Positions 45,352 through 64,000 of a stretch of DNA of 64,000 nt are shown one piece after another. Positions within the stretch are counted from its first letter, which is position 1. Each line of letters starts with the position of its first letter. The translations under genes and the position numbers were made by a program. Below the pieces are notes generated by a model, which did no database searches, was not told the DNA's origin, and was given only the letters and a program-made list of their open reading frames with translations. Source of the stretch: Naegleria gruberi (lineage: Eukaryota); the NCBI GenBank assembly GCA_000004985.1, contig GG738858.1; one strand, given 5' to 3'.

Positions 45352-47433
45352 TTATTGACTACCAGTCTTGGCAAAATCATTAAAACCACCCAATAAAGAA
45401 TCAGGAATAAATTCATAAGTTGAAATCTTTTCAGCCATTTCAATTAAATCAAAAGCAATATCTTGTGTAATGACACTATCTTTTTGATAATTTTGATGAT
45501 TTCTAATAAATTGTCTAATAAAAGCAGCATTAGTTTGTAATTTACCACTTGCTCTCAAACTAACTAAATTTAAATATCTTTCCAATTTAATTCTATCATT
45601 AACTTCAACATGCATTTGATCAAGATATTTTCTAACAAGAGGAATTAATCCAATAAATTTCTTATCTTGTTCTTGAACACCATTCATAATTTCATTAATT
45701 GTTAATTCCTTTGTACATTTAGAAAAAGTTTCAGATGAAATTTTAGAATTCAAATCAGAATCTAAACAAGTTCTAAATGAAAACTTTTGATTCAATACAG
45801 CATCTCTTAAATGTGCCTTTTTCATATTTTCATCAACTTGTGAAAGTGGCATTAACATGTTCAATTTGAATGATAAAATAGCACGTGTTAATAAAACAAT
45901 AAAAACTGTAAATGCAGCATTTTCAAAATCAGTTAATTGAACTTCCATAACTCTAAATTCAACTCTCCATCCAATTGATGAATTTGGACCTGGAGGTGGT
46001 TTAAATCTAACAGTTTGCCAATTGGTTGATTGTAAATTTTCAAAATGAACAGATTCATTTTCATCATCAACTTGTTTACAATCAGTAAATATAACAAGTG
46101 GATCACGTATAAAGTAATGTGCAATATGTCTTGATAATTGTTCATCAATATTATTTTCACGTAAAGTATTATATGATTGTTCATCAATTTCAATTTCCAA
46201 ATCACTAAATTGTTTTGCTTGTTCATTTTCACCAATATATAAACTAATTGAATCATATCTACTTTTAGAAATTGTATTATTTTCTTCATCTCTTCTATCA
46301 TCAACACTTGCACTAACAATATTCCATCGTACATCTGTATCTGCTAATAATCCACGTGCCATTGGTGTTGCTGCTGTGAGTGCTAACATTATTGGACATA
46401 AAACTGCCATTTGATCATATAAATTACGTGCTTCATGAATATCACGTGCTAATAATGTACTTTGCATACAACAACATCCCATTCCAAATGCCATTGCATC
46501 CATATGAATAAAATGTTCAAAATCTGTTATCAATCTTTGTGCATATGAAGATGAAAGTACTTGTTCCTTCTTTTGTTGAATAATTTCATCAATATTTGGA
46601 TATAAATTTGTTAGAGTTGATGAACTAGTTGTTGAAGAAGATGTAATATTATCCAAATGATGAACTTGTTTACCAATATTAACATTAGTATTTTCATCAA
46701 TATATAATGGTACTAGAATGTTAACATTTTTACCTCTTCTCAATCTGATATTTCTAGTTAGAGTACCAAATCTTGGATGTTCATTTGTAATAATATCTGG
46801 AATGTATGGTGATCTTGCAATTGGTCCATTAAAAGTTAACATTTCATTACTTTCATCATCACTTAATGGTAAAATATCACCAATCTTATTAAATTGACTC
46901 TTATTAATATCACTATTCAATACTTTACTTGTTGCACCTAATAATGGAAATAAAGACATTGTAATAACAGAATTTGTAACATTTGGTGATTTGAATTGTT
47001 GTAAAATCTTTGGAACAATTGATTGTGCAATCATTCTTCTTTTTTGCATTGATTCTTCACATTTCAAATAACAAGAAATACATCCTTCATATGGAAAGAA
47101 AGGTGTACCTTCTAACATAAATCTACCATATTCTGGTTTCCAACTTGCTAATGGTGCTTGTGTTATCAATTTTGAATTAAAATCTTCTTCTTCTTTCATT
47201 AAAACATCTAATACTTGTTTAGCATGTAATGATAAATAAACTTGACGTGATTCGGAATCTTTTTCTAACAATAAATATTCAATTTCATCTCCCCATTTCA
47301 ATTCTTTATCAGTTCTATCTTTTACCTTGTTATAAATTATTATAAATTGTTTAATACCATGTTCTTTTACATAGTCAATTAATGAAAGTGCATCAGTCCA
47401 CTTGAGTGGTGTACCTGCTTTTAATAATCCCAT
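45352..47433 (-). CDS. gclc: Glutamate-cysteine ligase catalytic subunit (gamma-glutamylcysteine synthetase), single exon.
   Basis: The 693-aa ORF reads MGLLKAGTPLKWTDALSLIDYVKEHGIKQF...KWGDEIEYLLL...GCCCMQSTLLARDI...WQTVRFKPPPG...GWRVEFRVMEVQLTDFENAAF and is colinear with human GCLC. Confidence 0.9.
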   Translation of the reverse strand: MGLLKAGTPLKWTDALSLIDYVKEHGIKQFIIIYNKVKDRTDKELKWGDEIEYLLLEKDSESRQVYLSLHAKQVLDVLMKEEEDFNSKLITQAPLASWKPEYGRFMLEGTPFFPYEGCISCYLKCEESMQKRRMIAQSIVPKILQQFKSPNVTNSVITMSLFPLLGATSKVLNSDINKSQFNKIGDILPLSDDESNEMLTFNGPIARSPYIPDIITNEHPRFGTLTRNIRLRRGKNVNILVPLYIDENTNVNIGKQVHHLDNITSSSTTSSSTLTNLYPNIDEIIQQKKEQVLSSSYAQRLITDFEHFIHMDAMAFGMGCCCMQSTLLARDIHEARNLYDQMAVLCPIMLALTAATPMARGLLADTDVRWNIVSASVDDRRDEENNTISKSRYDSISLYIGENEQAKQFSDLEIEIDEQSYNTLRENNIDEQLSRHIAHYFIRDPLVIFTDCKQVDDENESVHFENLQSTNWQTVRFKPPPGPNSSIGWRVEFRVMEVQLTDFENAAFTVFIVLLTRAILSFKLNMLMPLSQVDENMKKAHLRDAVLNQKFSFRTCLDSDLNSKISSETFSKCTKELTINEIMNGVQEQDKKFIGLIPLVRKYLDQMHVEVNDRIKLERYLNLVSLRASGKLQTNAAFIRQFIRNHQNYQKDSVITQDIAFDLIEMAEKISTYEFIPDSLLGGFNDFAKTGSQ

Positions 47434-47909
47434 TTTGATGTAATTGATATATTGTTGTTTGTTGTATTGTTGATAGAATTAGCCTTCTCTCTTTCTTCTT
47501 TAATATATATGAAATAGTATATAATAATAGTATATTATTGTATTTGATGATATTTATCTATTGTGTCTTCTCCTTCTCTATCCTATGATGAATAGTAGTA
47601 AAAAGGCTAGAAATGATGAAGGATAACCAAATCTCTCTCGAGGTTTTTTTTAATGAATGAACGCAGAGAATATTCCAAGCCTTGGAGACGGCTATTATGG
47701 TTAATTGTGGATTATTATCGCAAAATTCTGGCAAAAAATATTTTTTTTTAATTACGGATTTGAATTATGGAAGTATTACATTAGGTATTATGACGTGAAG
47801 AATTTTAATAAAATTATGTGAATTATTACAAATAAAAATTACAGTTTTTATTAGATTATTTATTATTGTTTTATTTTGAAATTAATTAACTGAAAATTAT
47901 TGCCAGTAT

Positions 47910-50597
47910 TTATTGGTAATAATTCATACAGAATGAAAATTGATTGAGAGCAATAAGACCTGGAAATCTGATTACACTGCACACGCTATTAATCTTTGAA
48001 AGAGGAATTACTGAAGTGGCAACTGAGTGAATGAATAGTTTGTACATTAATGATACATAACACAACTCTCCAAGCGTAAAAATTTCATCACAACAAACAA
48101 CATTATCCCCTAATTGAGATATCTTCCCAATAAATCTATCGAATTGAATATACATTCCAACCTTAAGTGATGATTTTCTAGCAACATCAAGTGTTTTACC
48201 AACTAATCGTCTTGTAAATGGATAATCTGCAAATAATGTATTCATTCCAACTTCATGTTGCAACCCTCTAACTTCAAGTAATTTGTTATTACTTCTATCA
48301 TTAAATTGTTTGAATTCAGAATGTTTCAATTCAAAAATCAACGCCCAAAACCATGTAACATCCCCAAAAAGTACACAATCTTCAAAAATGTGCGTTGCCC
48401 AATGATAATTCGGAAATTGGCAATTATCTTTGCCAAAACAATATGTAAAAATGGATTGAAATTTTGTAAATACTTTTTCACAATACACAATATCATCATG
48501 AGTATAATTCCCCCTTAATAACCTTATAAAATATTGTAAGTGAAGAATCCATCCTTGATAGAGTAATCCTTTTTTAGAAGAATCTATTTTCAACTTTTGA
48601 TTATTATTGTAAATTAATTCACAAATAATAGGAGCACTCATAATAATAAAATCTAACATTGAAATACCTGAAAGAGTGTCAATATCCATTCTTAATTCAA
48701 GCTTTTTTCCATTTGGAAGAGTATACTTTGTTGATATTTCAATTAAATCATCCATAGCAGTCGCATATTCTAATGCTTGTACAAGTAATTTGAGATGTTT
48801 TCGAAATAATCCTTGAATTTCTAAATGAAAGAAATCAACTACAGATCTACGATACGGATCTATCATTATTTGAGTAACAAATCTTGATTTGATGAATGTT
48901 TTGACAATTAATTGATTCATCAATTGTTTTCTTTTGTTTGTTGACATTTGCTTACTTTTGAATCTCTCCTCTTCCCAAGTTTGTTCTTTTACACCTTTCC
49001 TTGCAATTCTATTTTGTTTAGAATCTGCAATTTTAGGTAATTCTGATAATTTCTCAACAATATCTTTCATTTCTGAATGTTCTCTCCTTTTAAATGTGTG
49101 TACACATGTTGGATTAAACGCGGATGCACCCATTAAATCTGTTGGTGTTTTGTCAAGGTTGTCTGACGCATCTAAACATCTGGAACATTCATTTTTCATA
49201 AGTGCTAAACATTTCAATCTTTCAGGTGTATCTAATAAAAATCCCATACAGCAAATGAATAGCTTAATATCTTCTCCTGTAGTTGGATGTTTCACTGTAA
49301 TGATTTTACCATCATGATTTTCAAAATCTTGAATAATTGAATCAGTCATTTTCCAAAATCCTTCATTACTCCATGAAAAACCGTTTACACGAATTGCGCT
49401 TAAACTTGACATGAAATCTGAATCAAAATTGTAACTTGTGAAATAGGAGGCGCATGTTGACTTGGTTTTTGTTCTGAATTTAGCAAAATCATCAAAATAT
49501 TCTAAAACTAGAAATGGAAATGCATCTTCAGGGCATTTAGCAAGGTATTCACCAAATATTTTTGAAAAGTAAGGTTGATTTTCTTTCTTTTGTATATTCT
49601 TTTTTTCAAAATATTCTTTTCGTGTTAAGCACATGTGTTTTGTGATTGCTTGATCTTTCAACAACAATTTCAAATTATTCTCAAATGAAATTGCTGCAAA
49701 TCCATCCTCTTGTTTGTATTCAAAATTGATCATTGCTTTTTTCCTTTCGAGTAATGTATCGTAACAAGGAATTTCGTTAAAAGTTGATTCAGGGACCATG
49801 TATTTGAACATATCTCTAAGGAAATCGTACCCACTTTTACACAATTTGAAATGATTAACCAAAATATAACAGTATATTTCTTCTTTTGATTGAAATACAC
49901 CCTTTCCATTCACATCTTTTAAAATTTCACACCCCAAATCATATGGTAGCTCTTTAAAAACAAAATTTCCAATTTTTTCACATTTTACATCCGATTCTTT
50001 GTGAAATATTTCTGAAACTGGAAAATAAAGAGTGTCAATTATTGAAAAGGGAGTTTCAATTGTATTAGCAAATCCGAAAATACTACCTTCAGCTAAAACT
50101 TGTTGTGAGTGAATTCCGTTTTGTTTTAGCTTCTTCTGTTGCGATTCGTATTCAGTCAGCTTTGGTAATCTACTGTCTTTAGATTTTAGCAAATGTGTAC
50201 AATGTGAATTAATAATGTGAGTGTAACAATTTTCACTGTTCATGATAAAATTACAACAATTAAATCTTGATACAGTATCTATCTTTGCAAGAGAACAATT
50301 TCCCTTAGAACATCTATTAAGATGCTTTTTTAATAAATCTCCCTTTGTAAATGTTTGACAACAAAAAGGACAGACCCAGCGTTTTGTTTGACAATCACGA
50401 CATGAAGAACATAAACTTAAATCAAATGAAGATTTTGCACATTCATACACATAGTACTCTTCCTCTTTTTGACATTTATCGCATTTTGTTGCTTTTGTGA
50501 GAAAATCAAGGGATACATTGTTACCAGGTTTTTGTGTAATCATTTTTTTAGCATTGTAAACCATATGAAATTCTACCAAATAGTGGTTATTTTTCAA
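47910..50597 (-). CDS. Transposase of the Tnp2/KDZ family (CACTA/EnSpm superfamily) with an N-terminal Cys-rich zinc-chelating region and a C-terminal DUF4218-like domain; appears intact.
   Basis: This is an 895-aa uninterrupted ORF. N-terminal Cys clusters read CDKCQK...CSSCRDC...CPFCC...H..C. The Tnp2 core motif is IKLFICCMGFLLDTPERLKCLALMKNECSRCL (cf. the LLAC.CD.PA....N.K.FNG.YGC..C pattern). The C-terminal DUF4218-like motif is NYHWATHIFEDCVLFGDVTWFWALIFELKH. The first codon is TTG and the first ATG is 11 codons in. Confidence 0.6.
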   Translation of the reverse strand: MKNNHYLVEFHMVYNAKKMITQKPGNNVSLDFLTKATKCDKCQKEEEYYVYECAKSSFDLSLCSSCRDCQTKRWVCPFCCQTFTKGDLLKKHLNRCSKGNCSLAKIDTVSRFNCCNFIMNSENCYTHIINSHCTHLLKSKDSRLPKLTEYESQQKKLKQNGIHSQQVLAEGSIFGFANTIETPFSIIDTLYFPVSEIFHKESDVKCEKIGNFVFKELPYDLGCEILKDVNGKGVFQSKEEIYCYILVNHFKLCKSGYDFLRDMFKYMVPESTFNEIPCYDTLLERKKAMINFEYKQEDGFAAISFENNLKLLLKDQAITKHMCLTRKEYFEKKNIQKKENQPYFSKIFGEYLAKCPEDAFPFLVLEYFDDFAKFRTKTKSTCASYFTSYNFDSDFMSSLSAIRVNGFSWSNEGFWKMTDSIIQDFENHDGKIITVKHPTTGEDIKLFICCMGFLLDTPERLKCLALMKNECSRCLDASDNLDKTPTDLMGASAFNPTCVHTFKRREHSEMKDIVEKLSELPKIADSKQNRIARKGVKEQTWEEERFKSKQMSTNKRKQLMNQLIVKTFIKSRFVTQIMIDPYRRSVVDFFHLEIQGLFRKHLKLLVQALEYATAMDDLIEISTKYTLPNGKKLELRMDIDTLSGISMLDFIIMSAPIICELIYNNNQKLKIDSSKKGLLYQGWILHLQYFIRLLRGNYTHDDIVYCEKVFTKFQSIFTYCFGKDNCQFPNYHWATHIFEDCVLFGDVTWFWALIFELKHSEFKQFNDRSNNKLLEVRGLQHEVGMNTLFADYPFTRRLVGKTLDVARKSSLKVGMYIQFDRFIGKISQLGDNVVCCDEIFTLGELCYVSLMYKLFIHSVATSVIPLSKINSVCSVIRFPGLIALNQFSFCMNYYQ

Positions 50598-50674
50598 TGT
50601 ATTCCACCAAACACAAAATCATTACGTAATAATTTCGTATTGTAAATTATTAAAAAAAAACCATCCAAAACATA

Positions 50675-51379
50675 ATGTTAAGTACAACAACATCTATTAC
50701 AAATTCCACCGTAACACCTCCCAAAAAACGAAAAAAAGAGGTGGAGAAAAGAAAAACGACAAAGACACACCACCAAAAACTGTCTTATTGTACAAGTCTT
50801 GTTCCTGACAACTTTGTCACCTTGTTGAAACCTTTGCAAGATAGATACTTGGAAATTATTAATGAAACCAACGTTAGCTATTATTCCTTGGTAAGTAATT
50901 AATTGATTTTGTTACAATTTCCAAAGAAACTAAGAGCAGACTCTGACATAGAAATACAACAAGTAGCTGCAACATCATTGGTGGCAGTAACAAATTTTTT
51001 TGCTAACAATGCACAAATTCAAAGTTTAAAAAATAATTGTGAAAAAGATGAAAAACAATTTAATTTAATCGTAAGTTAGATTATAATAGCTAATAGTTTG
51101 TTTAATTTTACTGTTCAGATTGATGAAATAGTGTTGAACTGTTGCCGAGCTTATAAGAGCAACAAGAAGAAGAATTTGAAACGAAAGCAAGTAGAAAAAA
51201 CACGTGATTCTGGTAAGAAATTTGCAGTAGAAGATGAGGCAATAATTTATGAACAAGATGATCAATATAAAGCTTATAGAGATAAATTATCCGAACCAAC
51301 TAAAAACAAAAAAACTAAAATTGATAGTTCTATGGCTGTAGATATGGTTTGTTATCAACTTTTAATTCAAATATTCCAA

Positions 51380-51410
<31 letters not shown>

Positions 51411-51415
51411 TCTAA
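50675..51415 (+). CDS. Transposon ORF2: a K-rich protein of unknown function. Three exons: 50675..50890, 50927..51070 and 51119..51415.
   Basis: The ATG at 50675 encodes MLSTTTSITNSTVTPPKKRKKEVEKRK.... Introns of 36 and 48 nt with GTAAGT donors lie in phase 0. The product ends in a poly-Y tract. Its position and opposite orientation relative to the transposase mirror the two-gene layout of CACTA elements. Confidence 0.4.
51383..51409. repeat. (TAT)n microsatellite of about 9 units at the 3' end of transposon ORF2; other AAT/CAA/GAA trinucleotide runs occur throughout the window.
   Basis: The run tattattattattattattattatt is visible. Similar examples are (AAT)9 at about 55359-55385 and (GAA/GAG)n at about 16683-16760. 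Confidence 0.6.
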
Positions 51416-52658
51416 TTTCCGAATTTAATTAATTTCCAAATTTAATTCCACAATCACGTAAGTTACACTGAAGTTTTCAATTTTTCAATAATTCAATAAT
51501 TCAATATTGAATATTAATTTCCTTAGTTAATTGGTCAACTAATTCTGTTGCCTTTGGAGTCACTTCACAGTCAATTCACTCAATTCCAACACATAACTCT
51601 TTCATCTTCATGTTCATCTGTTGCAACAACAGAAACTACAGTCATTTCCCTTTGTACAGTTCCCATTGTTTCAATATTTGTTAGTTTCTGTGTAATTTGC
51701 TTTACTGTAAATAATCAAATAAATCAAATTCAATTAAAATTAAATATATTTCATAATTTTACAAAATAATTAGGTCAAAAATCTATCGTAAATTCTGTAA
51801 TAATTATTCCAATATATTTACATAATTATTCCATATTAAATTCATAATGTTAATACAATTATTACGTAATTTAATTAATAATTACCTCGTAATAATATCC
51901 GTAATAAATCCAATATTTTTGCCTGGAAATGACAAATCCGGTTGTGAATTGCTGTATAATTATATGATAATTCCGAAGAGATTATGATGTGATTGTGTAT
52001 TTTTTTTGGTTTTTATTACGGGAAAATTACGTCAAAATTATGGTGTATTCTGGTTTGATTATGAGCAAATTATGTTAAAATTAAATTAATGATTATGGCA
52101 AAACCGTCTCCTAGGAGGCATGGCTGGTTACGTGTTGGAATGCTTAAAGGTAGTGGAGTCATTATTAAGTGAGTGCGTACTCACTTAATTGACTGATGAA
52201 ATTGAACGGACGCATGAATATTATTTTGAAGATGATTGTTATTGTAAACTACCTTTCTTTACCGAATGTTATTGAATTGGATGTTTATTAGCAATGAATA
52301 TCAGTTCTCTTTATTAAAAAAGATCATTTCATTATTCGAACTTAATCTCAAAAATGTTCTTTCTTAAGGGAGTAATTATAAAAGTATGCACTTGGCATTT
52401 CATCCGCCAATTTGTACTCATTATCCGTTCAAATGTCTGCGCCACGCTGAAAGTTGTGAATTGGTATTAATTTTTACAATTATGGATTGGCTGATAATCT
52501 CAATTTTACAAAATTGTTACAATTTTATTCAAATTTTACTCAAATTCGCCCAATTTTAAATTGAAAATAAACACTCAATGCAGTTTATGTTAAATTATTC
52601 TCATAATGAATTTTAATTTCTTGTTGAAAAATAAAATTTTTGTTTTTGCTTTAAAAAA

Positions 52659-55600
52659 ATGACCAAGAAGCGTGGTGCCACTTCATCATCAACAACTTCA
52701 GCAGCAGCAACAAGTCAACAATCTGCTACCAACAAGTCTGCTACAGCAACAACAACAACTCAAACATTACCTTCTAAATATGAAGCACTATTCCGTAATC
52801 TTATTAAATTTTATGAAGAAAAACAATATCAAACAGCCTTGTCCTATGCTGATAATATTTTGAGAGATTATCCACAACATGGTGATACAATGGCTATGAA
52901 GGCTTTATTAACAAGATATCTTAAAGAACAAGAAATTAACAAGCGTGTTGAATTTAATACTAATTTTTATTATAATAAGAATTCTACTACAAATTCTAGT
53001 AGTACTACTTCTAACGGTACTAGTAATAGTAATAATAGTATTGGTGATGAATTAATGTTATATGACAAGACATATAAAAAAGATGCTTATAATATGGTTA
53101 AAAAGGCTTTGGAATATGTTAATAACAAGTCATTTATTTGTTGGCATGTTTATGGATTAATGTATAAGGAAGATTTTAAAATTTCTCAAGCAATTACTTG
53201 TTTCCAAAATTCATTAAAATTTAATCCAACTAATGAAATTCAAGCTTGGCGTGAATTGAGTAATGTTCAAATTCATTCAAGAGATTATAAAGGAGCGATT
53301 GAAAGTAGAAGAAAGTTAATTGAATTAAAACCAGGTATTGGTGCATTTTGGTTAGGTTATGCTGTTGCTCAACATTTAAGTGGAAATTTAACAGGCGCTA
53401 TTCAAACTATTGATAAATACATGACAGCACTTTTTGAACAAAGTAATAAGGATAGTAAGAATTACAAATTTGAAAAATCAGAATTATTACTTTATTTAGC
53501 ACAAATGATGTATGAAAATGGTCAATATAAGGAATGTGCTGATTCTTTATTAGCTAATACTAAATTTTTAGCTGATGAACTTTCAACTTTGGAATTACTT
53601 GCTGATTGTTATATTAAATTAAATCAATTAGATCATGCTAAAAAGATTGCTTTACAATTAATTAAGAAGAATTCAGAAGATTATTCTTATTATGGTAAAT
53701 ATCAATTAGCTTGTGGATTTAATACAAGTGAAAATAGATTCCTCCTCGATGATTCTAAATCTAATAATAATCAACAAGAAGAAGTTGCATTGAAATTATT
53801 TGAAATGTATACAACAAGTGAAGATTTGAAGGAATTTAGAGAAAAATCACCAGTTCTTAAAATGATTATTCTTTCTCTCTGTCCACCATATAACAATTCA
53901 AATGATGAAAGATTTAAAAAGGAATTGAATTCATTTGTTGAACCATATTTTACCAAGACTATTCCATCACTTTTTAAAACTTTGAAATCAATTTATCAAA
54001 AACAAACTTGTAAAATTGCACTCATTGAACAAGCCATGTTAGAAAGAATGAATCAAGAAGAATCCAATACTACTTCTAATACTTCTAATACTTCTACTAC
54101 TACTACTAACAAAGATCCAACCATTTTACTTTGGATTTATGTTTATTTATCACAACATTATGATGCCATTCATCAATATGATAAGGCTCTTGAATATGTT
54201 AATAGAGCTATTGAACATACTCCAACTCTTATTGAATTGTACATGCTCAAGGCTAAATTTTACAAACATTTATTTAATACTGAACAAGCTGCTTTATGTA
54301 TGGAACAAGCACGTTTAATGGATTTATCTGATCGTTATTTAAATACTAAAGCAACCAAATATTGGACAAGACATGATGAAATTGTTAAGGCTGATGAAAT
54401 GATTGGTATCTTTGCTAAACATCCAAAAGATCCTGCAACAAAGAAGGAAGAAGAAGCAAAAGAAAAGGAAAAGGCCAAACAACAACAAGAACAACCTCAA
54501 CAAACTCAACAAACTCAAACATCATCTTCATCACAACAAGATCTTGAAAAGAAGGAAGAAGAAGAAAAGGATTCTAATTTAATTCCAATTGAAGATGGTG
54601 CTATTTATCATCGTAATAATGTTCATGATATGCAATGTTTATGGTTTGAAAATGAATGTGGTGATGCTCATTATAGAAAGGGAGAATTATCAATGGCTGT
54701 TCGTAGATATTATTATACAGTTCAACATTTTATGGAAATGTATGAAGATCAATTTGATTTCCATACTTATTCAATTAGAAAGATGACACTTAGATCATAT
54801 ATTGAAATGATGAAATATTATGACAAGTTATATTCACAATATTTCTATTTCCATTCAGTTTGTGGATTATTGAATGTTTATTTATTATTATTAAAACAAA
54901 AAGAAGAAAAGGAAGGAATTACATTTGATTCACCAACTGAATATGGTAATTTTAAGAATGATTACATTTCAAATTTCCAAAATATTGATTTGAGAAAAGA
55001 TGAAGATTTGAATGGATTATATCTTTCTTCTAAAATTAATTTATTTGATGAATGTACTAAATATTTGAAACAATTAGAAGAATATCATTCAAATGAAATT
55101 ATTACACATATTTATGGTGTAACTATTTATTTAAAGAGTAGAAAATATTTACTTGCTAGTAAAGCATTAAAAAAAGCATTGGAATTATCACCATCTGATT
55201 ATAGAGCTCATTTATTGAAATTCCAATATTTAAAAACTATTAATTCTATTGATCAAGCTGATTCACTCTATAAATTATTACAAATGGATTATCAAAAAAT
55301 TACTTTAGGTAAATCATTAAATGATTTAAATGAAGAATGGAAAAATCAATTTATTACCAATAATAATAATAATAATAATAATGGAGGTGATATTCTCAAT
55401 GTATTATCCTATTTATCTGTTAAACATTTAATTAATGATAACAATAATAACAATAATACTGATAATAATGATAATGAATTATTAACAAGTATTGTTGAAA
55501 AATCATCATTACGTTCATGTTATATTGCTCATGCCATGTTAACAAAGAAGAGAATTACAAATAGACCATACAAGAAGGAACAAGATTACAAGATTAATAC

Positions 55601-55688
55601 TCATTTAGATTTTACAATTCAAAATCAAGATTTAATTGTTAATCAATTAGTTCAAAAGATTGAATCTGTTTTTAATATTAAATTGTAA
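52659..55688 (+). CDS. naa15: N-alpha-acetyltransferase 15 (NatA auxiliary subunit, TPR-repeat protein), single exon.
   Basis: The 1009-aa ORF reads YEALFRNLIKFYEEKQYQTALSYADNILRDYPQHGDTMAMKALL...SFICWHVYGLMYKEDFKISQAITCFQNSLKFNP...AWRELSNVQIHSRD...QFDFHTYSIRKMTLRSYIEMMKY and is colinear with human NAA15. Confidence 0.85.
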   Translation: MTKKRGATSSSTTSAAATSQQSATNKSATATTTTQTLPSKYEALFRNLIKFYEEKQYQTALSYADNILRDYPQHGDTMAMKALLTRYLKEQEINKRVEFNTNFYYNKNSTTNSSSTTSNGTSNSNNSIGDELMLYDKTYKKDAYNMVKKALEYVNNKSFICWHVYGLMYKEDFKISQAITCFQNSLKFNPTNEIQAWRELSNVQIHSRDYKGAIESRRKLIELKPGIGAFWLGYAVAQHLSGNLTGAIQTIDKYMTALFEQSNKDSKNYKFEKSELLLYLAQMMYENGQYKECADSLLANTKFLADELSTLELLADCYIKLNQLDHAKKIALQLIKKNSEDYSYYGKYQLACGFNTSENRFLLDDSKSNNNQQEEVALKLFEMYTTSEDLKEFREKSPVLKMIILSLCPPYNNSNDERFKKELNSFVEPYFTKTIPSLFKTLKSIYQKQTCKIALIEQAMLERMNQEESNTTSNTSNTSTTTTNKDPTILLWIYVYLSQHYDAIHQYDKALEYVNRAIEHTPTLIELYMLKAKFYKHLFNTEQAALCMEQARLMDLSDRYLNTKATKYWTRHDEIVKADEMIGIFAKHPKDPATKKEEEAKEKEKAKQQQEQPQQTQQTQTSSSSQQDLEKKEEEEKDSNLIPIEDGAIYHRNNVHDMQCLWFENECGDAHYRKGELSMAVRRYYYTVQHFMEMYEDQFDFHTYSIRKMTLRSYIEMMKYYDKLYSQYFYFHSVCGLLNVYLLLLKQKEEKEGITFDSPTEYGNFKNDYISNFQNIDLRKDEDLNGLYLSSKINLFDECTKYLKQLEEYHSNEIITHIYGVTIYLKSRKYLLASKALKKALELSPSDYRAHLLKFQYLKTINSIDQADSLYKLLQMDYQKITLGKSLNDLNEEWKNQFITNNNNNNNNGGDILNVLSYLSVKHLINDNNNNNNTDNNDNELLTSIVEKSSLRSCYIAHAMLTKKRITNRPYKKEQDYKINTHLDFTIQNQDLIVNQLVQKIESVFNIKL

Positions 55689-59836: not shown

Positions 59837-59888
59837 AANNNNNNNNNNNNNNNNNNNNNNNNNNNNNNNNNNNNNNNNNNNNNNNNNN
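59837..59888. other. Assembly gap (N run).
   Basis: 52 consecutive n characters. Confidence 0.99.
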
Positions 59889-60919: not shown

Positions 60920-63900
60920 NNNNNNNNNNNNNNNNNNNNNNNNNNNNNNNNNNNNNNNNNNNNNNNNNNNNNNNNNNNNNNNNNNNNNNNNNNNNNNNNN
61001 NNNNNNNNNNNNNNNNNNNNNNNNNNNNNNNNNNNNNNNNNNNNNNNNNNNNNNNNNNNNNNNNNNNNNNNNNNNNNNNNNNNNNNNNNNNNNNNNNNNN
61101 NNNNNNNNNNNNNNNNNNNNNNNNNNNNNNNNNNNNNNNNNNNNNNNNNNNNNNNNNNNNNNNNNNNNNNNNNNNNNNNNNNNNNNNNNNNNNNNNNNNN
61201 NNNNNNNNNNNNNNNNNNNNNNNNNNNNNNNNNNNNNNNNNNNNNNNNNNNNNNNNNNNNNNNNNNNNNNNNNNNNNNNNNNNNNNNNNNNNNNNNNNNN
61301 NNNNNNNNNNNNNNNNNNNNNNNNNNNNNNNNNNNNNNNNNNNNNNNNNNNNNNNNNNNNNNNNNNNNNNNNNNNNNNNNNNNNNNNNNNNNNNNNNNNN
61401 NNNNNNNNNNNNNNNNNNNNNNNNNNNNNNNNNNNNNNNNNNNNNNNNNNNNNNNNNNNNNNNNNNNNNNNNNNNNNNNNNNNNNNNNNNNNNNNNNNNN
61501 NNNNNNNNNNNNNNNNNNNNNNNNNNNNNNNNNNNNNNNNNNNNNNNNNNNNNNNNNNNNNNNNNNNNNNNNNNNNNNNNNNNNNNNNNNNNNNNNNNNN
61601 NNNNNNNNNNNNNNNNNNNNNNNNNNNNNNNNNNNNNNNNNNNNNNNNNNNNNNNNNNNNNNNNNNNNNNNNNNNNNNNNNNNNNNNNNNNNNNNNNNNN
61701 NNNNNNNNNNNNNNNNNNNNNNNNNNNNNNNNNNNNNNNNNNNNNNNNNNNNNNNNNNNNNNNNNNNNNNNNNNNNNNNNNNNNNNNNNNNNNNNNNNNN
61801 NNNNNNNNNNNNNNNNNNNNNNNNNNNNNNNNNNNNNNNNNNNNNNNNNNNNNNNNNNNNNNNNNNNNNNNNNNNNNNNNNNNNNNNNNNNNNNNNNNNN
61901 NNNNNNNNNNNNNNNNNNNNNNNNNNNNNNNNNNNNNNNNNNNNNNNNNNNNNNNNNNNNNNNNNNNNNNNNNNNNNNNNNNNNNNNNNNNNNNNNNNNN
62001 NNNNNNNNNNNNNNNNNNNNNNNNNNNNNNNNNNNNNNNNNNNNNNNNNNNNNNNNNNNNNNNNNNNNNNNNNNNNNNNNNNNNNNNNNNNNNNNNNNNN
62101 NNNNNNNNNNNNNNNNNNNNNNNNNNNNNNNNNNNNNNNNNNNNNNNNNNNNNNNNNNNNNNNNNNNNNNNNNNNNNNNNNNNNNNNNNNNNNNNNNNNN
62201 NNNNNNNNNNNNNNNNNNNNNNNNNNNNNNNNNNNNNNNNNNNNNNNNNNNNNNNNNNNNNNNNNNNNNNNNNNNNNNNNNNNNNNNNNNNNNNNNNNNN
62301 NNNNNNNNNNNNNNNNNNNNNNNNNNNNNNNNNNNNNNNNNNNNNNNNNNNNNNNNNNNNNNNNNNNNNNNNNNNNNNNNNNNNNNNNNNNNNNNNNNNN
62401 NNNNNNNNNNNNNNNNNNNNNNNNNNNNNNNNNNNNNNNNNNNNNNNNNNNNNNNNNNNNNNNNNNNNNNNNNNNNNNNNNNNNNNNNNNNNNNNNNNNN
62501 NNNNNNNNNNNNNNNNNNNNNNNNNNNNNNNNNNNNNNNNNNNNNNNNNNNNNNNNNNNNNNNNNNNNNNNNNNNNNNNNNNNNNNNNNNNNNNNNNNNN
62601 NNNNNNNNNNNNNNNNNNNNNNNNNNNNNNNNNNNNNNNNNNNNNNNNNNNNNNNNNNNNNNNNNNNNNNNNNNNNNNNNNNNNNNNNNNNNNNNNNNNN
62701 NNNNNNNNNNNNNNNNNNNNNNNNNNNNNNNNNNNNNNNNNNNNNNNNNNNNNNNNNNNNNNNNNNNNNNNNNNNNNNNNNNNNNNNNNNNNNNNNNNNN
62801 NNNNNNNNNNNNNNNNNNNNNNNNNNNNNNNNNNNNNNNNNNNNNNNNNNNNNNNNNNNNNNNNNNNNNNNNNNNNNNNNNNNNNNNNNNNNNNNNNNNN
62901 NNNNNNNNNNNNNNNNNNNNNNNNNNNNNNNNNNNNNNNNNNNNNNNNNNNNNNNNNNNNNNNNNNNNNNNNNNNNNNNNNNNNNNNNNNNNNNNNNNNN
63001 NNNNNNNNNNNNNNNNNNNNNNNNNNNNNNNNNNNNNNNNNNNNNNNNNNNNNNNNNNNNNNNNNNNNNNNNNNNNNNNNNNNNNNNNNNNNNNNNNNNN
63101 NNNNNNNNNNNNNNNNNNNNNNNNNNNNNNNNNNNNNNNNNNNNNNNNNNNNNNNNNNNNNNNNNNNNNNNNNNNNNNNNNNNNNNNNNNNNNNNNNNNN
63201 NNNNNNNNNNNNNNNNNNNNNNNNNNNNNNNNNNNNNNNNNNNNNNNNNNNNNNNNNNNNNNNNNNNNNNNNNNNNNNNNNNNNNNNNNNNNNNNNNNNN
63301 NNNNNNNNNNNNNNNNNNNNNNNNNNNNNNNNNNNNNNNNNNNNNNNNNNNNNNNNNNNNNNNNNNNNNNNNNNNNNNNNNNNNNNNNNNNNNNNNNNNN
63401 NNNNNNNNNNNNNNNNNNNNNNNNNNNNNNNNNNNNNNNNNNNNNNNNNNNNNNNNNNNNNNNNNNNNNNNNNNNNNNNNNNNNNNNNNNNNNNNNNNNN
63501 NNNNNNNNNNNNNNNNNNNNNNNNNNNNNNNNNNNNNNNNNNNNNNNNNNNNNNNNNNNNNNNNNNNNNNNNNNNNNNNNNNNNNNNNNNNNNNNNNNNN
63601 NNNNNNNNNNNNNNNNNNNNNNNNNNNNNNNNNNNNNNNNNNNNNNNNNNNNNNNNNNNNNNNNNNNNNNNNNNNNNNNNNNNNNNNNNNNNNNNNNNNN
63701 NNNNNNNNNNNNNNNNNNNNNNNNNNNNNNNNNNNNNNNNNNNNNNNNNNNNNNNNNNNNNNNNNNNNNNNNNNNNNNNNNNNNNNNNNNNNNNNNNNNN
63801 NNNNNNNNNNNNNNNNNNNNNNNNNNNNNNNNNNNNNNNNNNNNNNNNNNNNNNNNNNNNNNNNNNNNNNNNNNNNNNNNNNNNNNNNNNNNNNNNNNNN

Positions 63901-64000
63901 NNNNNNNNNNNNNNNNNNNNNNNNNNNNNNNNNNNNNNNNNNNNNNNNNNNNNNNNNNNNNNNNNNNNNNNNNNNNNNNNNNNNNNNNNNNNNNNNNNNN
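60920..64000. other. Assembly gap or scaffold end (N run).
   Basis: An uninterrupted run of n to the end of the window. Confidence 0.99.

Follow-up and report, generated by a model that had tools for sequence, protein, structure and literature searches.

Positions 47680 to 52115 of a 64-kb stretch of Naegleria gruberi DNA (64,000 nucleotides of contig GG738858.1, assembly GCA_000004985.1; hereafter, the window) very likely hold one complete autonomous cut-and-paste transposon, which represents a Naegleria-type lineage of the CMCT clade and is inserted in the upstream region shared by the genes for glutamate-cysteine ligase (GCLC) and the NatA auxiliary subunit (Naa15). We put the probability of this reading at roughly 0.88. 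A survey of the CMCT clade unites EnSpm/CACTA, Mirage, Chapaev, Transib, Plavaka, ESTA, Lanisha, and RAG1 under a joint D..D..C(2)C..H(3-4)H..E signature (PMC12730594). Placement of the window element as an autonomous member of the CACTA/EnSpm-related supergroup relies on the catalytic signature of its transposase, a RAG1/Transib-like predicted fold, identical copies, and a sister family with defined ends in Naegleria lovaniensis. An intact transposase open reading frame (ORF) with its catalytic residues lies between both ends, as expected of an autonomous element. The initial annotation had described an apparently intact Tnp2/KDZ transposon of CACTA-like type; intactness and kinship with the CACTA/EnSpm supergroup were upheld, whereas the Tnp2 and KDZ labels found no Pfam match and were abandoned.

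Element ends and the sister family in Naegleria lovaniensis

The element is delimited by the following features, given in window coordinates.

47680..52115, minus (strand of the transposase gene): whole transposon, 4436 bp, bounded by inverted 12-mers
47680..47691, plus: terminal inverted repeat on the 3′ side of the transposase gene, CCTTGGAGACGG
52104..52115, plus: terminal inverted repeat on the ORF2 side, CCGTCTCCTAGG (inward, CCTAGGAGACGG)
47678..47679, no strand: putative target-site duplication AG, left copy, directly outside the inverted repeat
52116..52117, no strand: putative target-site duplication AG, right copy, directly outside the inverted repeat
47694..47843, plus: left sub-terminal array of 8 ATTAY(G/A), all on the plus strand, mostly 11-13 bp apart, with gaps of 26 and 57 bp too
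51752..51905, minus: inner array on the ORF2 side, 7 ATTAY(G/A) on the minus strand plus one palindromic ATTACGTAAT
51981..52097, plus: outer array on the ORF2 side, 7 ATTAYG on the plus strand, with 11-bp spacing or steps of 21-34 bp

The two 12-bp terminal inverted repeats (also written as CCTWGGAGACGG) agree at 11/12 bases. They correspond to the short GC-rich inverted repeat of the initial annotation, which proved to be real and to mark the element ends. Allowing one mismatch, CCGTCTCCWAGG occurs at 2 sites in 64 kb, namely, both termini, against 0.02 expected, and none of 100 shuffles of the window reached two sites. A systematic scan for inverted-repeat pairs with flanking direct repeats returned these 12-mers as the only non-trivial and best non-low-complexity pair; no pair with a flanking duplication of 3-10 bp was found in that scan.

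A relative of the transposase in N. lovaniensis (P0081), 39% identical to the window transposase frame (ORF1), is encoded on six contigs with different neighbor genes each. The six insertions fix the ends of a 4391-bp element, with which the window element agrees in size, termini, and gene layout.

Length: N. lovaniensis, 4391 bp (six copies, 99.66-99.95% identical); window, 4436 bp
Termini: N. lovaniensis, CCTAGGAGCAGA...TCTGCTCCTAGG; window, CCTAGGAGACGG and CCTTGGAGACGG, read inward
Target duplication: N. lovaniensis, 2 bp in 6/6 (AT, AA, TT, TT, AA, TT); window, AG/AG flank
Sub-terminal motif: N. lovaniensis, RGTATTTT/AAAATAC, 8 in the ends versus 1 inside; window, ATTAYG
ORF2: N. lovaniensis, 187 aa, three exons, upstream on the opposite strand; window, 218 aa, likewise

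The N. lovaniensis termini start CCTAGGAG and have their first eight bases in common with those of the window element, which begin CCTWGGAG. A more distant relative at a metagenome locus (L007; 27-29% identical) lies between 18-bp inverted termini that start CCTAGGAA (CCTAGGA) and are ~5.4 kb apart. The right terminus of the window element, the N. lovaniensis termini, and those of L007 all read CCTAGG, and the left window terminus alone reads CCTTGG (first 8 nt CCTTGGAG, versus CCTAGGAG in N. lovaniensis and CCTAGGAA at L007). A 3-bp duplication of the CACTA type had been anticipated for the window element; the duplication is instead 2 bp long (6/6 insertions in N. lovaniensis; AG/AG in the window), and the termini are CCTWGG. 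The six N. lovaniensis duplications consist exclusively of A and T (6/6). The six insertions (loci L001 to L006, 8328-12718) encode an identical product, and this product together with the 99.7-99.95% identity of the copies implies very recent activity in that species.

Both ends of the window element carry dense sub-terminal arrays. ATTAYG occurs 93 times in the 64-kb window (1.45 per kb), most densely in the two element flanks: 47694-47813 has 5 copies, each in plus orientation, and 51821-52092 has 13, which are on the minus strand at 51821-51900 and on the plus strand at 51981-52092. Many adjacent motifs are spaced 11-13 bp apart. The claim that the flanks are packed with sub-terminal motifs therefore stood for ATTAYG but not for GAACG (one per flank) or ATGAAT (one or two per flank), neither of which is enriched and whose copies beside the 12-mers fall beyond the inverted repeats. 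Together, the left and inner right arrays make up an extended imperfect inverted repeat (Smith-Waterman score of 52 versus 29 ± 3 for shuffled sequence), and the right end has one additional array of opposite polarity, which makes the element ends asymmetric. This ~160-bp imperfect inverted repeat (47730-47889 versus 51740-51923) was considered as the terminal repeat itself and rejected, as it consists of the paired sub-terminal arrays; the N. lovaniensis termini show that the real ends lie further out, at the 12-mers. The outer right-hand array is unlikely to have a nested or MITE-like (miniature inverted-repeat transposable element) origin, with which its motif polarity does not agree. The sub-terminal motif differs between the elements of the two species while the architecture is kept, a pattern that fits co-evolving protein-DNA recognition.

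These arrays also bear on whether ORF1 could be a domesticated host gene derived from a transposase, with the flank repeats being normal components of the GCLC and Naa15 promoters. Such a gene would accord with the divergent promoter location, with an annotation that merely reads "predicted protein," and with the finding of no second DNA copy of the element within the 64-kb window. However, identical proteins are encoded on at least three other scaffolds, the motif arrays and 12-mers occur nowhere else in the window, and the sister family, whose inverted termini are conserved with those of the window element, occupies six unrelated sites, each flanked by a target duplication. We thus regard domestication as highly improbable and favor an inserted transposon.

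Three further candidates for element parts were discarded. The TTGGAAT blocks, listed as element features in the initial annotation, are located outside the inverted repeats, as is the direct similarity GAACG..GAATATT, which is not enriched either. The perfect 20-bp palindrome reported near the right end turned out to be an imperfect hairpin with a 4-nt loop, 42 bp beyond the element: its 10-bp arms, TTAAGTGAGT and ACTCACTTAA, occupy 52165-52188, and the structure extends to 52157-52194 (stem of 11 + 5 bp, GCGT loop, -12.4 kcal/mol, DNA-fold z = -7.4 versus shuffles). The Naa15 start codon follows ~465 bp downstream of this hairpin, which may be a host regulatory site or a remnant.

The transposase, its relatives, and its predicted fold

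The transposase gene comprises the following features.

47910..50543, minus: transposase coding sequence, 877 aa + stop, intronless; frame open upstream to 50597
50193..50483, minus: N-terminal Cys/His-rich region (aa 39-135), weak zf-C2H2 Pfam match
48198..49904, minus: RAG1/Transib-like catalytic core (aa 232-800)
49491-49493, minus: codon of D369
49230-49232, minus: codon of D456
49185-49187, minus: codon of C471
49176-49178, minus: codon of C474
48402-48404, minus: codon of H732
48390-48392, minus: codon of H736
48330-48332, minus: codon of E756
47943..48152, minus: C-terminal all-beta domain (aa 816-885)

ORF1 (47910-50597, minus strand) has 895 open codons with no stop and no frameshift. 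The gene is therefore as intact as first described, but the protein is most likely shorter than the 895 aa then given. Codon 1 is TTG, ATGs are found at codons 12 and 19, and the predicted product most likely has 877 aa and starts at codon 19, because an identical paralogue is annotated from this codon and the closest relative keeps "KMIT" there. The final 629 codons are 100% identical to NAEGRDRAFT_75925 (629 aa; "predicted protein"), a truncated gene model of this very locus.

An alignment of 23 sequences revealed near-invariant residues throughout the protein (D369, D456, C471, C474, R505, H591, H732, H736, G745, W751, E756, and H759). They compose the signature D..D..C(2)C..H(3)H..E, in which C471-x2-C474 and H732-x3-H736 form a zinc module. 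The core block singled out by the initial annotation, CCMGFLLDTPERLKC...CSRCL, is indeed present at aa 449-475 and includes D456 and C471/C474. The C-terminal H..H...G....W...FE motif (H732, H736, G745, W751, and E756) is likewise near-invariant in the 23 relatives, but its designation as DUF4218-like did not hold for ORF1, which has no DUF4218 match. The N-terminal Cys clusters were also found as described; they weakly resemble two C2H2-type zinc fingers, which is probably what the region encodes, and it is presumed to be the DNA-binding domain. A profile of the family run against the sequences of PDB matched tandem C2H2 fingers (E ~1e-3), and the finger region is also kept in the N. lovaniensis ORF, where the transposase frame runs upstream of the annotated start into it. 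The annotated 742-aa model of N. lovaniensis lacks ~128 open in-frame N-terminal codons that encode this region.

Sequence searches gave little by way of known families. With ORF1 cut into four pieces and Pfam queried at E ≤ 10, only two weak matches were obtained, one to zf-C2H2-type fingers at the N terminus and one to Plavaka (PF18759; 15.6 bits versus a gathering cut-off of 26.3; E = 0.0097), which falls on the CCMGFLLDTPERLKC...CSRCL block; no Transposase_21/Tnp2, DUF4218, or KDZ match appeared. The latter is the outcome that the initial annotation itself had named as speaking against its assignment. A word-index protein search with ORF1 found its own record only, and the same search with the 23-sequence alignment or the closest relative returned nothing informative. 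Two metagenome DNA scans gave no match.

Among 1.84 billion cluster representatives, scanned exhaustively with HMMER, 75 relatives were identified, the best being 36% identical over the full length (E = 1e-153). All named relatives are Naegleria proteins, and the remainder come from metagenomes and read-set assemblies. The named set includes the multi-copy N. lovaniensis family, N. fowleri fragments, and two divergent N. gruberi families. The latter are annotated as "predicted proteins" and are 26-30% identical to ORF1; one comprises NAEGRDRAFT_65790, 71659, 51042, and 76741, and the other comprises NAEGRDRAFT_64044 and 76420. A single relative (P0022; 1/75) passed the Plavaka gathering threshold, with 40.1 bits, and its clade aligned with the Naegleria clade over 616 columns in hhalign (probability 100%, E = 4e-74).

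An AlphaFold2 model built from the 23-sequence alignment reached a mean pLDDT (predicted local distance difference test) of 75.7, with residues 232-895 mostly at 80-95. In a Foldseek comparison with solved structures, 29/29 matches at E ≤ 1e-3 were RAG1 (down to 6e-12) or HzTransib. The family-profile search of PDB sequences found zinc fingers only and did not find RAG1.

These results make it improbable that the element is a CACTA transposon proper, with a Tnp2 transposase (Transposase_21 + DUF4218), or a member of KDZ. DUF4218 was detected weakly and below cut-off in 4/75 relatives (best E = 6.4e-4), its motif is similar to the H(3)H..E block, and the sub-terminal repeats and second gene recall En/Spm. 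Against this, neither Transposase_21 nor KDZ models matched ORF1, its pieces, or the 75 relatives (E ≤ 1), the termini are CCTWGG and not CACTA, and the duplication, at 2 bp, is shorter than that of EnSpm (3 bp) or Zisupton (8 bp). Moreover, KDZ is a separate transposase group without sequence similarity to Plavaka-type transposases (PMC12730594). We therefore retain the CMCT assignment without either label.

Accessory gene, copies, and mobility

A second gene accompanies the transposase on the opposite strand.

50544..50674, no strand: spacer between the divergent start codons, 131 bp (~135 bp in the N. lovaniensis element)
50675..50890, plus: ORF2 exon 1, 72 codons, includes PPKKRKKEVEKRK, which resembles a nuclear localization signal
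50927..51070, plus: ORF2 exon 2, 48 codons; GTAAGT donor, AG acceptor, frame kept
51119..51415, plus: ORF2 exon 3, 98 codons + stop, ends in a (TAT)9 poly-Tyr tract

The spliced, Lys-rich ORF2 of the initial annotation was corroborated. By predicted splicing, three exons join in frame to encode a 218-aa Lys-rich product; each of the two introns starts with GTAAGT and ends with AG, and neither interrupts a codon. The spacer would act as a bidirectional promoter. ORF2 had no match in Pfam, and its exact sequence was not found in the protein collection. Exon 3 is nonetheless homologous to the last exon of the N. lovaniensis ORF2 (local score of 95 versus 38 ± 6.7; 0/500 shuffles), and the two products share the pattern DEI.L..CR...KKK...F.E.D..Y...YK.Y. 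The poly-Tyr C terminus of the ORF2 model is encoded by a (TAT)9 microsatellite at 51380-51406; similar ATT/TAT runs are also seen at other places in the window, and the actual 3′ end of ORF2 may thus not be where it is modeled. The stretch 51411-51532, which lies between the ORF2 end and the inner array, contains TTCAATAATTCAATAATTCAATATTGAATATT and a 20-nt direct repeat in three copies, ATTAATTTCCAAATTTAATT (85-100% identical).

A comparable gene arrangement is found in other relatives. The 5.3-kb contig of the closest relative carries the transposase and three small opposite-strand ORFs, as in the window. The distant relative P0023 resides in a ~4.35-kb unit (locus L008, metagenome-derived assembly GCA_037189345.1, 289-4645) with small opposite-strand ORFs upstream and an additional 348-aa ORF downstream. 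The candidate 11-13-bp inverted termini of this unit, (AT)CGATACACATT, have AT flanks and differ from the CCTAGG ends. The two-gene layout thus seems to be older than the Naegleria clade, with termini that differ.

Copies of the transposase within N. gruberi were compared as protein records, drawn from the cluster (90% identity) to which the annotated protein belongs. NAEGRDRAFT_65505 (877 aa; 782-kb scaffold) is 100% identical to the transposase, a 309-kb scaffold encodes both NAEGRDRAFT_52500 (320 aa, one substitution) and EFC39176 (111 aa), and NAEGRDRAFT_76847 is a further copy on another record. Proteins 100% and 99.7% identical are encoded on at least three other N. gruberi scaffolds. 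A 93-aa fragment, 98% identical, was also found in an environmental assembly. As these comparisons were made between protein records, the identical copies could in principle be haplotigs of a polyploid, heterozygous strain, with the element in single copy per haploid genome. Yet the copies are spread over scaffolds of 782, 309, and 138 kb and one more record, with gene models that differ and a single substitution; that one locus would be represented by at least three haplotigs on scaffolds this large is unlikely, and the sister family in N. lovaniensis is demonstrably dispersed. We accordingly give the haplotig explanation a small chance only and take the copies as probably separate insertions.

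Several observations weigh against a complete and active CMCT element in the window. Pfam returned no match to whole ORF1 at E ≤ 1, i.e., nothing above threshold for the ORF itself. An accidental 2-bp flank match has a chance of ~1 in 16, so that AG/AG is weak by itself; in addition, the N. gruberi copies are known as proteins, and the AG duplication of the window copy is putative, being read from the window. The L007 termini are flanked by TA and AT, with no clean 2-bp duplication. CMCT termini are 5′-CA..TG-3′ in most cases (PMC12730594), and those of the window family are CCTWGGAG...CTCCWAGG (CCTAGGA at L007). The inverted repeats of the window copy differ by one base (left CCTTGG versus right CCTAGG). 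Lastly, the term "active" is inferred from ORF intactness and copy identity. On the other side, the window family has the protein signature and the RAG1/Transib-type predicted fold of the CMCT clade, and its duplication falls within the 2-5 bp range of that clade, as seen in the 6/6 insertions in N. lovaniensis.

The terminal mismatch also raises the prospect that the intact window copy is no longer mobile, either silenced or crippled by its left repeat, and is a fossil of a recent burst. In N. gruberi, 5-methylcytosine accumulates on repeats and younger transposon insertions (PMC12344493), which would fit silencing. However, the intact ORF has lost none of its catalytic residues, another full-length copy encodes the identical protein, and a single terminal mismatch is common in active elements. 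An immobile copy is unlikely on balance, though to be taken more seriously than the other alternatives; probably, the family has been mobile recently and the window copy is still competent.

If so, transposition would proceed as follows. The zinc-finger region and/or the ORF2 protein may bind the sub-terminal arrays and bring both ends together. By analogy with RAG1 and Transib, the DDE core would then nick at the CCTAGG termini, the element would be released, probably via hairpins on the flanking DNA, and insertion would occur with a 2-bp stagger. The expected empty site would read ...TATTCCAAG|GCATGGCTGG... with a single AG.

The genes on both sides of the element are those originally named, as supported by Pfam.

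45352-47433, minus: glutamate-cysteine ligase gene (GCLC), Pfam GCS, E = 8e-157
52659-55688, plus: NatA auxiliary-subunit gene (Naa15), Pfam match, E = 5e-101

A divergent codon usage and GC content had been put forward as a mark of the element. ORF1 does differ from its neighbors, with a G+C content at third codon positions (GC3) of 0.21 and 24 GC-rich rare codons per 1000, compared with 0.10 and 1.4 in GCLC and 0.14 and 1.0 in Naa15. However, ORFs of ≥250 aa in the first part of the window (1-36 kb) have a GC3 of 0.24-0.31 and 11-36 GC-rich rare codons per 1000. Composition was therefore rejected as a sign of foreign origin, since ORF1 falls inside the range of other window genes. The window as a whole has a compositional step, with GC at 0.31-0.35 up to 36 kb and at 0.25-0.29 beyond (36000-60900); the GC3 of long ORFs is 0.24-0.31 before 36 kb and 0.06-0.14 after, where GC-rich codons are nearly missing. 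The transposon genes (GC3 of 0.21-0.24) resemble window positions 1-36000, yet are located in the 36000-60900 part. Runs of N at 59839-59888 (50 bases) and 60920-64000 (3081 bases) represent assembly gaps or padding, the latter leaving the final 3 kb of the window without sequence. An Rfam scan of 47300-52800 gave no match.

The element occupies the shared promoter region of two essential housekeeping genes and could affect their regulation. It would also be a convenient marker for insertion polymorphism between strains.

Comparison with known transposon groups

Transposons of Naegleria are poorly classified, and only a small fraction of N. gruberi repeats can be assigned to known transposon types (PMC12344493). 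One family is now defined by its ends, duplication, two genes, arrays, and catalytic residues, and several "predicted proteins" of three Naegleria genomes can now be recognized as products of transposase genes, whole or fragmentary. The literature searched, which did not extend to Repbase, contained no description of a CMC- or Plavaka-type element from Naegleria; the window family is apparently a new, unnamed lineage of a known kind of transposon. In a more specific form, which we advance tentatively and at somewhat under even odds, this would be an unnamed RAG1-like (CMCT) lineage of Naegleria and of uncultured eukaryotes related to it, at present active in two or more Naegleria species and characterized by palindromic CCTAGG termini, 2-bp duplications, a zinc-finger N terminus, a small beta C terminus, and a conserved divergent accessory gene that reads lineage-specific arrays (ATTAYG; RGTATTTT). 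If true, it would offer a tractable deep-branching relative of RAG1 for studying end pairing and cutting. The family adds a branch from Discoba, distant eukaryotes, to the transposase group ancestral to RAG1, with intact copies at hand for biochemistry. Current understanding is not overturned; a known kind of element is extended to a new host group with unusual termini, which is of moderate interest for specialists in transposons and RAG1 evolution.

En/Spm, the CACTA system of plants (TnpD, a Tnp2-type transposase, and TnpA), resembles the window family in its short terminal inverted repeats, asymmetric sub-terminal arrays in both orientations, two proteins, and the same catalytic signature, and four relatives of the window family show weak DUF4218 similarity. 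The window family differs in that it has no Transposase_21 match, no CACTA termini, and a duplication of 2 bp instead of 3 bp. In En/Spm, the second protein is an alternative splice product of one transcript, whereas the window transposase gene is intronless and ORF2 is a separate, divergently transcribed gene.

RAG1, ProtoRAG, and Transib provided the best and only significant structural matches to the predicted fold of the window transposase. The residues D, D, C-x2-C, H-x3-H, and E occur in the same order as in RAG1 and with similar spacing when compared by residue number (in the mouse protein, D600, D708, C727/C730, H937/H942, and E962). Transib elements generate 5-bp duplications and have CACWATG-type ends. 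No match to RAG1 was evident at the sequence level, even with the family profile, the N- and C-terminal domains differ, and the window element has no RAG2-like partner.

KDZ elements (Kyakuja, Dileera, and Zisupton) are similar to the window family as large eukaryotic DDE transposases with Cys-rich regions. They are set apart by the lack of any match to KDZ transposase or CxC-domain Pfam models (ORF1 pieces at E ≤ 10, relatives at E ≤ 1) and by the 8-bp duplication of Zisupton versus 2 bp in the window family.

Mirage and Chapaev, compared by description only, are cut-and-paste DDE elements of the same assemblage. Mirage makes 2-bp duplications. Termini in the CMCT clade, to which both belong, are usually 5′-CA..TG-3′ (PMC12730594), unlike the CCTAGG of the window family.

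Plavaka is the sole Pfam transposase model that ORF1 touches, below threshold (15.6 bits versus 26.3), and the one that the relative P0022 passes. Both have the D..D..C(2)C..H(3-4)H..E signature, and PlavakaA also makes 2-bp duplications (PMC12730594). Plavaka termini, however, are TGT..ACA (A) or CATCA..TGATG (B) in place of CCTAGG, and Plavaka was described from fungi, whereas the window family comes from Heterolobosea, its ORF2 with three exons is conserved, and its transposase ends in a beta domain. PlavakaA and possibly Mirage, the latter compared by description, are the nearest described systems to the Naegleria element.

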